A DNA stretch of 64,000 nt from an uncultured bacterium (GTDB lineage: Bacteria > Verrucomicrobiota > Verrucomicrobiia > Limisphaerales > UBA8199). Below the pieces are notes generated by a model that worked only from the letters and a program-made list of their open reading frames with translations, was not told the origin of the DNA and did not search any database. The position numbers and the translations under genes are program-made. This document shows, piece by piece, positions 40,445 to 46,258 of this stretch; positions within the stretch are counted from its first letter, which is position 1; every line of letters starts with the position of its first letter. The DNA is taken from positions 216,006 through 280,005 of the forward strand of contig CAVVMW010000023.1 of NCBI GenBank assembly GCA_963749495.1. The letters are read 5' to 3'.

Positions 40445-43264
40445 TCATTGTTGGGCAGCAAGGCCCGATGCTCGAACGAACCGACCCGCTGATTGGAGTT
40501 CCTCGTGCAGCCCCGGTTCGACGCGCCGGAGTATGTCCAAGACCACCTCCCGCACTTCCGGGAAGAGCCGCTCCAGGATGCCCACATCCCTCGTCTCGAG
40601 TAACTCCTTTGCTCTCAGGAACGGCTCCAGCAACTTCAAAACCGCGTCCGTCTGCACTCCCCTTGCTACTGAGCGGGCAAGCCCAGGAAATGCTCGCGGG
40701 CTGGTCTCCAACACCTGCCGGAGGAAATTGCCGACCTTGTTTCCAAGCCACTCGGAACTTCCCCAAGACTCCATTTGGAAGGTGCAGTTGAACAAACCCT
40801 CACAGATTTGGCTCTCGCCGCGGCGGAGGCAGGTTAACGCCACGGCGTGAAGAAAACCGCAGGTTTGGGACGCCGCATCAGCCGGAATTTGAATTTCCCC
40901 GAGTGCCGAAGGCAGGGCTTCCAACAACGGTCCAAGTCGCCCCAGGCATCCGAGCGTGATCTGGCGCTTTGTCTTCAAACTCCAGTCGCCAGGCTCGATT
41001 TTCAACCCGGCGTCGAAATCCGCCAACGCTTCGCTGTGCCGTCCGGCCAGGAGGAGCAGGTCCCCATGCGTGCCGTGGTAAGCCACCGGGCCGGCGCCTC
41101 CTTGTCTGGCATTCTCGGTGGACGCGAGGGCCTCATCGCTCCGCTCCAGCGCGGCAAGGATCCATGCCTTTGCGAGCCAGAAATCCGGATTGTCAGGCTC
41201 GGCAGCCAGCGCCTTTTCGACGGCCAAGAGGCTGTCTTCGAACCGCCCTAACTTTTCGAGAACCCCGGCCTCCAAGGCGAGGAGGTCGGGTCCTTCTTCC
41301 CCGGCCTTCCGTGCCTTGCGATACGCGTCCAAGGCAGTGTTAAATCGCCCCAGGCTCTCGGCGGCCATGCCAAGGTTTTGCCATGCCAGAGCGTCGTTTT
41401 CGTCAAGCACCAAGGCACGCTCCGCGCACTCAAGCGCCTCCTGGTCTCGGCCGAGGGCAAGGCAAACCTGGCACTGGCGGACCAGCAACTCAACGGACGG
41501 CTTGCCGGTCGCCACCGCTTTGCGGAGGGCCTCCAGCGCGCGGTTGAGGTTTCCAAGGATGCTTGCCGCGACACCGAGCCATTCCCAAGCCGAGGCACTG
41601 CCTGGGTCGAGCGCCACGGCCTGCTCAGCGAGCTTCAGAGCCTCCTGGGTCCGACCTAACTCCCCGAAAGCCACCGCCTGCCCAACACACAGTTCAGCCG
41701 TCGCTCCGCCGAGTTCCGAGGCTTTCCCCAAAGCCTGCAGCGCACGTTCAAAGTTGCGGCACGCACCGGCTACCATGCCAAGCCGTTCCCAAGCCAAATG
41801 GCTCTTGTCGTCAAGTGCAACGGCACGCTCCGCGCATTCGAGCGCCTCCGCTGTTCGACCCAAATGCTGAAGGACGAGGGATTGGTACCTCCACAGGTCA
41901 GCGCTTGGCCCGCTGATTCGTGTTGCATTCCTGAATGCTTCCAGGGCGTCCTCGTCCTTGCCCGCCCTCCCCAGTGCGATGCCCAGTTGCTCCCACGGCA
42001 AAGGGCTTGTGGGGTTTAGTGCCATGGCCTCATGAGCGCATTTGAGCGCCTCCTCCGTTCTCCCGAGGTTAAGCAGAACACCGGTCTGCTCGTTCCAGAG
42101 GTCGGCGGTCGGTTTGCCCAGTTCTACCGCCTTCCGGAGGGCGTCGAGAGCGCGCTCGTGCTGCCGGAGATCGTTGGCTACGGCGCCGAGCTCCTCCCAA
42201 GCGGCAGCGCAATTTGGTTCCAGTCTCGTGGCCTCCTCCGCGCACGTGAGCGCCTCTGCTGATTGGCCAAGCGCTCTGAGGGCCACGGACTGGTTTGTGA
42301 GGAGGTTCGCGGTTGGCTCCCCTAACTCCACAGCTTTGCGAAATGCTTTCAGGGCTGTAGTGTTGTCCCCAAGCCAGCCCGAGGCGACCCCGAACTCCTG
42401 CCAGGCGGACGCACTGTTCGCGTCCGTTGCCACCCCGGCCTCGGCGCACTTAAGGGCCTCCTCGGTCCGACCAAGATTCCGAAGTTCGATAGACTGGTAC
42501 CTCCACAGGTCCGCAGTTGGCCCGGTCGCTTGCGCAGCCTTCCTGAAGGCATCCAGGGCACTAGTGTGGTTACCAACTCCGTCGAGAGCAATCCCAAGTT
42601 CTTGCCAAGGCAGGGGGCTGTTGGGATCCAGTTCTGTTGCCCGGTCGGCGCAGAGGCGCGACTCCTCTGCCCTGCCGAGGTTCAGGAGTACGATCGCCTG
42701 TGCGGTCCAGAGCTCGGGGCTCGGTTTGCCCAATTCCGCCGCTTTGCGCAGCGCGGCGAGCGCGCGCTCGTGTTGGCCAAGACCATTGGCAGCGGCACCG
42801 ACCTCTGCCCAGGCCCTCGCACTGCCCACATCCAGCACTGCTGCTCGCTCGGCGCACTCCAGCGCCTCTTCCTTCCGGCCAAGCGCACGGAGAGCGACGC
42901 ACTGAGAGGCCAGCAGGTCGGCGCTTGCGTCGCTCACCTCAACGGCCTTGCGGAACGCTTCCAGAGGCTCGTGCATGGTTGCCAACGCCACCGGAAACAA
43001 CCCCAAGTGCCTCCCAGGCCCGCGCGCTCTCGATGTCCAGAGCCACCGCTCGCTCGGCGCACCCAAGCGCCTCTTCTCTCCGACCCAGCTCTTGAAGCGC
43101 CATGCACTGACCGGCCAGGAGGTCGGCCGTCGGCCCGCCAACCTCAACGGCCTTGCGCAAAGCCTCGAGGGCCCGCTCGAATTTTCCCACCTTTGCGGCG
43201 ACGACCCCAAGCCACTCCCAGCCGGAGGCATCCGTTGAGTCCAGTGCCGCGGCATCTTCCGCAC
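40445..43264 (-). CDS. P-loop NTPase-TPR (STAND-like) protein, C-terminal segment: TPR array + unique C-terminal domain
   Basis: From approx 42977 downward there are roughly two dozen 34-aa TPR-like repeats (by eye) with the consensus AW..LG.A...LG....AL.AFRKA.ELG.P.A.L. The array ends in an approx 190-aa non-repeat tail. The first approx 95 listed residues are off-frame read-through of the upstream segment. Confidence 0.85.
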   Translation of the reverse strand: MRKMPRHWTQRMPPAGSGLGSSPQRWENSSGPSRLCARPLRLAGRRPTSWPVSAWRFKSWVGEKRRLGAPSERWLWTSRARGPGRHLGLFPVALATMHEPLEAFRKAVEVSDASADLLASQCVALRALGRKEEALECAERAAVLDVGSARAWAEVGAAANGLGQHERALAALRKAAELGKPSPELWTAQAIVLLNLGRAEESRLCADRATELDPNSPLPWQELGIALDGVGNHTSALDAFRKAAQATGPTADLWRYQSIELRNLGRTEEALKCAEAGVATDANSASAWQEFGVASGWLGDNTTALKAFRKAVELGEPTANLLTNQSVALRALGQSAEALTCAEEATRLEPNCAAAWEELGAVANDLRQHERALDALRKAVELGKPTADLWNEQTGVLLNLGRTEEALKCAHEAMALNPTSPLPWEQLGIALGRAGKDEDALEAFRNATRISGPSADLWRYQSLVLQHLGRTAEALECAERAVALDDKSHLAWERLGMVAGACRNFERALQALGKASELGGATAELCVGQAVAFGELGRTQEALKLAEQAVALDPGSASAWEWLGVAASILGNLNRALEALRKAVATGKPSVELLVRQCQVCLALGRDQEALECAERALVLDENDALAWQNLGMAAESLGRFNTALDAYRKARKAGEEGPDLLALEAGVLEKLGRFEDSLLAVEKALAAEPDNPDFWLAKAWILAALERSDEALASTENARQGGAGPVAYHGTHGDLLLLAGRHSEALADFDAGLKIEPGDWSLKTKRQITLGCLGRLGPLLEALPSALGEIQIPADAASQTCGFLHAVALTCLRRGESQICEGLFNCTFQMESWGSSEWLGNKVGNFLRQVLETSPRAFPGLARSVARGVQTDAVLKLLEPFLRAKELLETRDVGILERLFPEVREVVLDILRRVEPGLHEELQSAGRFVRASGLAAQQ

Positions 43265-46237: not shown

Positions 46238-46258
46238 TTACATAACAATAGTGTTACG
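46238..46258. promoter_or_regulatory. GTTAC-N9-GTGTTAC motif sharing TAGTGTTACG with the 4035-4054 palindrome
   Basis: Lies 11-31 nt upstream of the ATPase start (minus strand) in an AT-rich patch. The 10-mer TAGTGTTACG (46249-46258) is identical to 4046-4055. Confidence 0.3.

Follow-up and report, generated by a model that had tools for sequence, protein, structure and literature searches.

Signal-transducing ATPases with numerous domains (STAND) and related nucleotide-binding leucine-rich repeat (NLR)-type sensors play a central part in immunity across the domains of life. The characterized prokaryotic members act either through a fused effector, as in the Avs and bNACHT proteins, or through a dedicated DNA-binding output domain, as in MalT. 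The latter oligomerizes on arrays of repeated boxes in a ligand- and ATP-dependent manner. Most defense STAND sensors are tetratricopeptide repeat (TPR)-like, and deletion of the effector abolished activity in the Avs systems that were tested (Lee et al. 2026, PMC13581612). STANDs without a role in defense are typically transcription regulators (PMC13581612; PMC7159879). Here we analyze a pair of ATPase genes, A and B, that has neither kind of output. The pair lies on the minus strand of a 64,000-nucleotide (nt) stretch of DNA from an uncultured bacterium of the Verrucomicrobiota (assembly GCA_963749495.1, contig CAVVMW010000023.1, positions 216,006 to 280,005), referred to below as the window.

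Three long open reading frames (ORFs) span positions 40445-46248 and hold gene A and, in two parts, gene B (Table 1). We see about an even chance that the locus is one instance of a self-contained cassette of two genes that moves horizontally and encodes a DNA-anchored, self-repressed sensor switch made of paralogous NTPase-winged helix proteins. The cassette pairs a sensor nucleotide-binding oligomerization domain (NOD) with a bare paralogous NOD and carries its own operator across the boundary between bacteria and archaea. It matches no named system, and no description of the gene pair was found in the literature. If functional, it would represent either a new way for NLR-like proteins to produce an output or a genetic switch that is portable and responds to a ligand. 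Its compactness (about 4-6 kb), its defined DNA target and the modular repeats of its sensor make it directly testable.

The initial annotation of the window, made from the sequence alone, had proposed a two-component NTPase module, and the strong co-conservation of the two genes and their STAND-type NOD and TPR-sensor layout bear this out. A genome scan restricted to one genome per species returned 324 relatives, all in uncultured metagenome-assembled genomes (MAGs); locus counts given below refer to the best 80. Both genes were present in 67 of these loci, with gene A immediately upstream of gene B and on the same strand in 66. Gene B runs off the contig in 7 further loci, and the order A-then-B thus holds in at least 73 of the 80. 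The same arrangement was found on metagenome contigs. A public protein collection contained 107 relatives of the gene B N-terminal module and 370 relatives of gene A. Public annotation of the two genes, where seen, goes no further than "TPR repeat protein," "ATP-binding protein," "AAA family ATPase" or "hypothetical protein." The bacterial hosts belong to the Acidobacteriota, Planctomycetota, Lentisphaerae, Methylomirabilota, Bipolaricaulota, Thermotogae, Aminicenantes, Binatia, Spirochaetia, and Alpha-, Gamma- and Deltaproteobacteria, and three archaeal lineages carry the cassette as well. Gene A was truncated or missing in six loci (L011, L059, L071, L073, L080, and L086).

All-against-all clustering of the neighboring ORFs yielded no third conserved gene, the commonest family being present in 7 of about 84 loci. 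The neighbors were heterogeneous and included metabolic enzymes, sulfatases, transposases and, occasionally, PIN, toxin-antitoxin (TA), SLFN and AAA_14/DUF4143 proteins. Some loci lie amid housekeeping genes such as mutS2, rnc and ruvABC. The genomic context, which had been suggested as a test of the initial proposal, was neutral in outcome, being neither a conserved housekeeping one in general nor clearly that of an island. Several individual loci deserve mention. In MAGs assigned to the Bipolaricaulota, the Thermotogae (by label) and the Fraserbacteria (L006, L014, L016, and L020), the cassette occupies a lineage-specific housekeeping context with the conserved order SDR-mutS2-A-B. A single Binatia contig, CBDCPK010000005.1, carries two near-identical cassettes (L050 and L069) about 2.2 Mb apart. 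In a Methylococcaceae locus (L085, 8859-9695), a type II TA pair consisting of a UPF0175/Phd-like antitoxin and a DUF3368 protein lies between genes A and B. In a Spirochaetia locus (L082, 6724-8799), an insertion sequence (IS)-type DDE transposase gene on the opposite strand parts the operator boxes (6724) from gene A (8799).

The overlap of the two genes by 17 nt and the Shine-Dalgarno GGAGGA of gene B inside gene A, both reported in the initial annotation, were found at 45034-45062. The gene B ATG at 45050 precedes the end of gene A, and the sequence upstream of it reads ...TGGTGGAGGAGATATC-ATG. P0005, the closest homologue of gene B with 90% identity in the N-terminal module, likewise overlaps its gene A by 17 nt when its true start is used. 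The gene A product is present in identical form in the public protein collection (P0112), with the same gene call.

Profile comparison marks genes A and B as paralogues, both of them ORC/Cdc6- and STAND-like. When aligned with hhalign, the two family profiles matched at 98% probability (E of 3e-13) over 322 columns, which cover the NTPase domain, the lid and the winged helix-turn-helix (wHTH). Gene A is a bare NTPase-winged helix module devoid of a sensor. Its FFDREETI...AAPRRVGKSSL N-terminus was present as described, and all family-invariant residues, including the Walker B DE, are retained. The FFDRE...PRRxGK(T/S)S signature, the order of NTPase, lid and winged helix, and the length are all shared with the PF01637 proteins of known structure, 2qen and 2fna (SSO1545). 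The gene A family profile (A3) matched both across the NTPase domain, with E values of 3.1e-9 and 8.3e-9, respectively. Unlike these, the single gene A sequence scored 21.1 bits against Pfam ATPase_2 (PF01637), under the gathering threshold of 33.2; many of its homologues carry a precomputed PF01637 match. No described function was found for PF01637 proteins, and none is known to pair with a TPR-bearing paralogue.

The gene B family is characterized by the motifs GPRGIGKT (seen in the window as the expected GPRGIGKTH), hhhh(D/E)N and an invariant TGGNPRL. By its position, TGGNPRL probably corresponds to the STAND GxP motif. The Walker B motif of the family is D/E-N, in which the usual second acidic (catalytic) residue is absent. 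Pfam returned very strong TPR matches and weak matches to AAA_16, ORC-CDC6-like (PF24389; 16.8 bits versus a cutoff of 27), nSTAND1, nSTAND6 and HTH_24. The suspected winged helix of gene B was found in three ways, namely by the weak HTH_24 match, by a profile of the region that matched MarR-like wHTH structures in the PDB, and in the AlphaFold2 (AF2) model of residues 1-440 (pLDDT of 80), which comprises an NTPase domain, a helical lid and a winged helix. The best Foldseek matches to this model were archaeal Orc1/Cdc6 (2v1u and 2qby) and SSO1545 (2fna), followed by Sr35, Apaf-1, CED-4, NRC2, MalT (8bob) and the PH0952-type 6mfv, with a probability of 1.0. Identity to Orc1/Cdc6 was only 12-15%, at TM-scores of about 0.45-0.5. 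Walker A, the Walker B position, a lid with TGGNPRL and a winged helix make up the layout of a STAND NOD, and gene B has them all. Relatedness of the gene pair to PF01637 and to ORC/Cdc6 is at the profile or fold level only. The A/B paralogy, the Asp-to-Asn change in Walker B and the 68-aa periodicity of the TPR array described below had not been recognized initially.

The initial annotation had credited the operon with an AT-rich promoter patch and a shared motif, TAGTGTTACG. The locus does have a promoter region of its own; what had been read as an AT-rich patch is a deeply conserved operator of tandem palindromes, which is a new observation. The motif is present at 46249-46258 and proved to be half of operator box 1. 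All three boxes of the window (46221-46262) lie downstream of the -35-like TTGACA. In L001, a locus 90% identical to that of the window, box 1 is kept as GTTACGTAAC at an equal distance from the start codon; the boxes and their spacing are shared between the two loci, and the intervening spacer has diverged. The third half-box at the start codon was also found in L001, L003 and L008. In 47 upstream regions, self-similarity at offsets of 13-20 nt averaged 17.7 of 24 versus 12.1 in shuffled sequences, and wherever it was strong, the best offset was 15 or 16. One clade, archaeal copies included, carries 2-4 GTTRYRYAAC(A) palindromes with a period of 16 nt, which often include the -10 hexamer. In a second clade, made up of Binatia and proteobacteria, the boxes read TTGSCAAAA and recur every 15 nt. 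Over about 1.5 Mb of DNA from the loci, the tandem box pattern was essentially confined to the gene A promoter.

The type of box covaries with the recognition helix of gene B: ALVNAQL is found with GTTATGTAAC, VRALLTRL with GTTGCGCAAC, and SSHASAQL with TTGCCAAAA. Since the operator accompanies the cassette from phylum to phylum and between domains, its binding factor would most simply be encoded by the cassette itself. The tandem-palindrome operator shifts the likely mechanism toward a DNA-bound, self-regulating switch. A metagenome-wide scan for the tandem box pattern gave 28 hits, 6 of which were cassette promoters. The other 22 were beside unrelated genes (RNase E, integrase, PGDH, ResIII and others) or in long simple arrays, and no regulon was inferred from them. 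The arrays, found at L097 (Ga0136655_1075891, 4-108) and also at L089, L096, L100 and L106, consist of up to at least 8 copies of a 16-bp unit with GTTATGTAAC and are located on contigs without the cassette, beside unrelated genes; they may be iterons, other operators or simple repeats.

The window contains one further exact copy of TAGTGTTACG, at 4046. This copy is part of a perfect inverted repeat, AGTAACAC-TTATT-AGTGTTAC (4030-4055), which has the GTAACAC half-site in common with box 1. The repeat lies about 20 nt past a TATAAT-like hexamer, and an ATP-grasp-like gene (4320-5729) follows about 270 nt downstream of the repeat. The repeat may represent another target site for the cassette, or the resemblance may be coincidental.

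The roughly two dozen regular TPR-like repeats noted initially correspond to about 24 TPRs. Ten double-TPR units of 68 aa follow one another in perfect register at gene B residues 631-1310, plus flanking units, with a mean identity of 45% among the ten. No tandem repeat was found at the DNA level in the TPR region by TRF. Across the family, the distance from the end of the NOD (ERLFRIW) to the C-terminal motif (LFPEVRE) equals 570 + n x 68 aa, where n is 0-5, 8 or 9 among relatives. Gene B of the window is one 68-aa unit shorter than its 90%-identical relative. These spacings indicate that the array gains and loses entire 68-aa units. In some gene B members from Aminicenantes (P0070-P0074; L007, 10001-12640), HEAT repeats replace the TPR array and a gene A homologue still precedes the gene, which is a swap of the sensor domain within the gene B family.

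The C-terminal domain, singled out as distinctive in the initial annotation, is family specific and conserved. The last 150-215 aa of gene B are conserved to about 25% identity and always form the extreme C-terminus. AF2 modeled the domain as an all-alpha cap (pLDDT of 92.7), to which Foldseek found only weak TPR-like matches (E of at least 0.01). Searched against 1.84 billion representatives, the C-terminal profile hit 215 representative clusters, and in the hits listed the match extends to the C-terminus. No other architecture was seen in this search, in which the N-termini of the hits were not checked; the hits are most likely members of the gene B family. A HEPN-like Rx4-6H motif was considered and rejected: RVEPGLH is present in the window copy and is not conserved in homologues.

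As had been stated initially, no effector domain was recognizable. Pfam, NCBIfam and PADLOC detected no enzymatic effector in gene A, gene B or the C-terminal domain. PADLOC, which the initial annotation had recommended running, matched no system and gave only insignificant P-loop matches. The two families that had been named as architectural models were not supported. An Avs-type assignment is contradicted by the absence of an N-terminal effector, of a PADLOC Avs match, of evident defense enrichment among 149 neighbors and of any viral copy. A MalT/LuxR-type assignment is contradicted by the absence of a LuxR/GerE HTH match in Pfam and by a C-terminus that is a family-specific helical cap.

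In the switch that we favor, the gene B product, perhaps together with the gene A product, would bind the boxes as an ATP-dependent oligomer and repress its own promoter. The TPR solenoid would capture a ligand, most likely a protein, and thereby switch the NOD. The gene A product, with its canonical Walker B DE, would be the hydrolyzing partner of the hydrolysis-poor gene B product (D-N) and would assemble or reset the complex. Because there is no enzymatic effector, the switch would act by altering DNA binding, transcription or the oligomeric state. As the role of such a switch, foreign-protein surveillance (defense or conflict) and signal-dependent gene regulation appear about equally likely, each being possible rather than probable.

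Several points weigh against this model. Binding to the boxes is deduced from co-transfer and covariation only, and shared ancestry alone also yields covariation of box and helix. With a period of 16 bp, consecutive boxes do not face the same side of the helix, which makes the geometry of binding hard to picture. No other target promoter and no second box array were found within 10 kb on either side of any locus. A system without an effector has no obvious route to cell protection. On the defense side, there was no clear enrichment of defense genes, with only a handful of the 149 immediate neighbors matching defense models (a raw count), and no relative was found among the 2.9 million viral contigs of IMG/VR; both results weaken a defense role. 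Lastly, gene B of the window is broken, and this copy may therefore do nothing.

The break is the frameshift that had been reported near 42977; it is indeed present and was placed within about 10 nt of that position. One extra base brings the first frame to a stop at 42939, and deletion of any one base in the affected run restores the repeat consensus ...GNHARALEAFRKAVEV and yields a protein of 1,534 aa. The closest homologue, P0005, is uninterrupted. In addition, Walker B in the window is LINNL, with Asn at position 167 (NN), versus Asp or Glu in every aligned homologue (about 70). The available public contigs covered neither the frameshift nor the Walker B site; the three sequencing runs that contain the region are of low depth and likewise reached neither. 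The 840 codons past the frameshift are open and consensus-like, and any inactivation must therefore be recent. A giant RHS/Kelch gene next to the cassette (27175-37277, plus strand) is likewise split, into at least three overlapping ORFs on the same strand (27175-31680, 31601-34018, and 33984-37277), which fits further single-base indels in the assembly. Because this neighboring gene is also split, an assembly error is a serious possibility for the gene B indel. The Walker B substitution is more likely to be real. Gene B of the window is either an assembly artifact combined with a natural variant or a recently inactivated gene.

Among the alternatives for the family as a whole, an anti-phage or anti-mobile-element immune system of the NLR/Avs kind is possible, though we would not call it probable. 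The TPR array of gene B would recognize a conserved invader protein, and the activated gene B product would recruit gene A as the helper of a sensor-helper pair. The cell or the invader would then be arrested through derepression of the operon and/or through the A-B oligomer, by its binding to DNA or its consumption of ATP. Gene B resembles Avs1-21 and the related bacterial NLR proteins (Gao et al. 2022; Lee et al. 2026, PMC13581612) in its P-loop NOD, its lid with the GxP-like TGGNPRL, its winged helix and its long, fast-evolving TPR-like C-terminal sensor, and it shares with them a patchy, horizontally transferred distribution. The rapid change in sensor unit number, the replacement of TPR by HEAT in P0070-P0074, the spread over bacteria and archaea in variable contexts, the occasional TA, PIN, SLFN and AAA_14/DUF4143 neighbors and the TA pair inside L085 point the same way. 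So do the prevalence of TPR-like sensors in defense STANDs and the degenerate Walker motifs of KpAvs8, an Avs family member, which an extended-data legend reads as lacking ATPase activity (PMC13581612). Unlike Avs, however, the cassette has no effector, fused or co-encoded, while loss of the effector abolished activity in the Avs tested (PMC13581612), and it matches no curated Avs model; membership in that family was rejected on these grounds. It also differs from Avs in its obligatory sensor-less paralogous ATPase and its tandem-palindrome operator and in showing no evident enrichment in defense islands. The few defense-like neighbors, the missing PADLOC and viral matches and the loci amid mutS2, rnc and ruvABC further count against immunity. 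Paired NLRs (NAIP-NLRC4 and the NRC networks) offer an analogy, since they too consist of two co-encoded paralogous NODs with a large variable sensor on one; the helper gene A, unlike theirs, has no signaling or killing domain, and the likeness is architectural only. A more specific and somewhat less probable version is a DNA-anchored, effector-less paired NLR-like immune module common to bacteria and archaea. The hydrolysis-poor TPR sensor NOD (Walker B D-N) and the helper ATPase would sit on the phased palindrome array at their own promoter. When the TPR solenoid, variable in copy number, captures an invader protein, the complex would be released or remodeled, and the output would be derepression together with a DNA- or ATP-directed action of the helper, with no fused enzyme. 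Of comparable, limited likelihood to immunity is a pair of MalT-like signal-transducing transcription factors with no role in conflict, which would control their own promoter and unlinked targets, ligand binding to the TPRs driving ATP-dependent oligomerization on box arrays. The combination of NOD and TPR/SUPR sensor, the fold matches to 8bob and 6mfv, the canonical MarR-like wHTH, the overlap of the conserved operator with the -10 region or the start of transcription, the many housekeeping or metabolic contexts and the typical function of non-defense STANDs (PMC13581612; PMC7159879) agree with this. Unlike MalT and the large ATP-binding LuxR-like (LAL) activators, gene B has no C-terminal LuxR/GerE HTH or other output DNA-binding domain, so that membership among them was rejected and the wHTH in the NOD is the sole candidate for DNA binding; the cassette also has a paired ATPase partner and no linked target operon. 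The movement of cassette and operator across phyla and domains is hard to square with host-specific target promoters, no second box array was seen within 10 kb of any locus, and a 24-TPR array of varying copy number would be unusual in a metabolite-responsive regulator.

Two further explanations concern the boxes and the window copy itself. It is very improbable that the genes encode an ORC/Cdc6-like initiator whose iterons, the boxes, serve an integrated or episomal element as its origin of replication or maintenance. The N-terminal 440 aa of gene B do have archaeal Orc1/Cdc6 (2v1u and 2qby), structures bound to origin DNA, as their best structural match, with an AAA+ base, a lid and a C-terminal winged helix. 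Heterodimers of Orc1/Cdc6 paralogues bind repeated boxes beside their own gene, tandem direct repeats adjoin the gene in iteron-controlled replicons as they do here, and long arrays of 16-bp units occur on unrelated metagenome contigs (L097, L089, and L100). However, only 2-4 boxes are present, placed precisely in the interval from the -35 element to the start codon; conservation in the vicinity extends to no other genes of mobile elements; the loci are chromosomal, on Mb-scale contigs; the arrays away from the cassette are beside unrelated genes and likely represent chance or other repeats; and a TPR sensor of more than 800 aa would be out of place in an initiator. Unlike Orc1/Cdc6, the cassette shows no sign of an origin and is found in bacteria alongside DnaA-type replication. 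With PF24389 under its cutoff, the likeness at fold level and the boxes inside a promoter, membership among the initiators was rejected. A dead window copy is a more substantial concern, short of an even chance: gene B would be a recent pseudogene, by frameshift and D167N, at a locus without current function, irrespective of the role of the family. Both lesions fit this, and decay is seen elsewhere in the family, with gene A truncated or missing in six loci and an IS inserted in L082. Against it stand the 840 open codons with their consensus kept, the full set of invariant residues in gene A, the split RHS gene as a sign of assembly errors and the degenerate Walker motifs of KpAvs8, which belongs to an Avs family (PMC13581612).

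Table 1. Features of the cassette and its promoter, in positions of the window
Feature	Position	Strand	Remarks
-35-like TTGACA	46292-46297	-	Read from the sequence; most bacterial homologous loci have a TTGACA at the corresponding place with respect to the boxes
Operator box 1, ATTACGTAACA	46252-46262	-	Carries TAGTGTTACG of the initial annotation on the other strand
Operator box 2, GTTATGTAACA	46236-46246	-	Exactly 16 nt past box 1
Operator box 3, GTTATGAACA	46221-46230	-	16 nt past box 2; overlaps the gene A ATG
Gene A	45034-46227	-	397 aa; PF01637-like P-loop ATPase, lid and winged-helix-like C-terminus
Gene A Walker A, APRRVGKSS	46093-46119	-
Gene A Walker B, D147-E148	45784-45789	-	Canonical DE
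Shine-Dalgarno GGAGGA of gene B	45057-45062	-	Within gene A
Gene B, entire	40445-45050	-	1,534 aa after one-base correction; ATG at 45050
Gene B part 1 (frame A)	42968-45050	-	NTPase, helical lid, wHTH, linker and first TPRs
Gene B part 2 (frame B)	40445-42963	-	Open as far as the stop codon at 40445-40447
Gene B Walker A, GPRGIGKT	44856-44879	-
Gene B Walker B position, N167	44550-44552	-	Asp/Glu in all homologues aligned there
Gene B TGGNPRL motif	44235-44255	-
Gene B wHTH	about 43896-44117	-
TPR array, about 24 TPRs	41045-43493	-	Core of ten in-register 68-aa double-TPR units
Frameshift site, one extra base	42964-42967	-	Breaks gene B
Family-specific all-alpha C-terminal domain	40448-40915	-	Motif LLxPFxxAxxxLxTxDxxILERLFPEVRE

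The operon had also been described as flanked by unrelated secreted-enzyme genes. On one side, a 967-aa ORF (37315-40218, plus strand) converges on gene B and matched no Pfam family at an E value of 1e-3 or less. The description held for the other side of the cassette, which is flanked by a GH26 gene.

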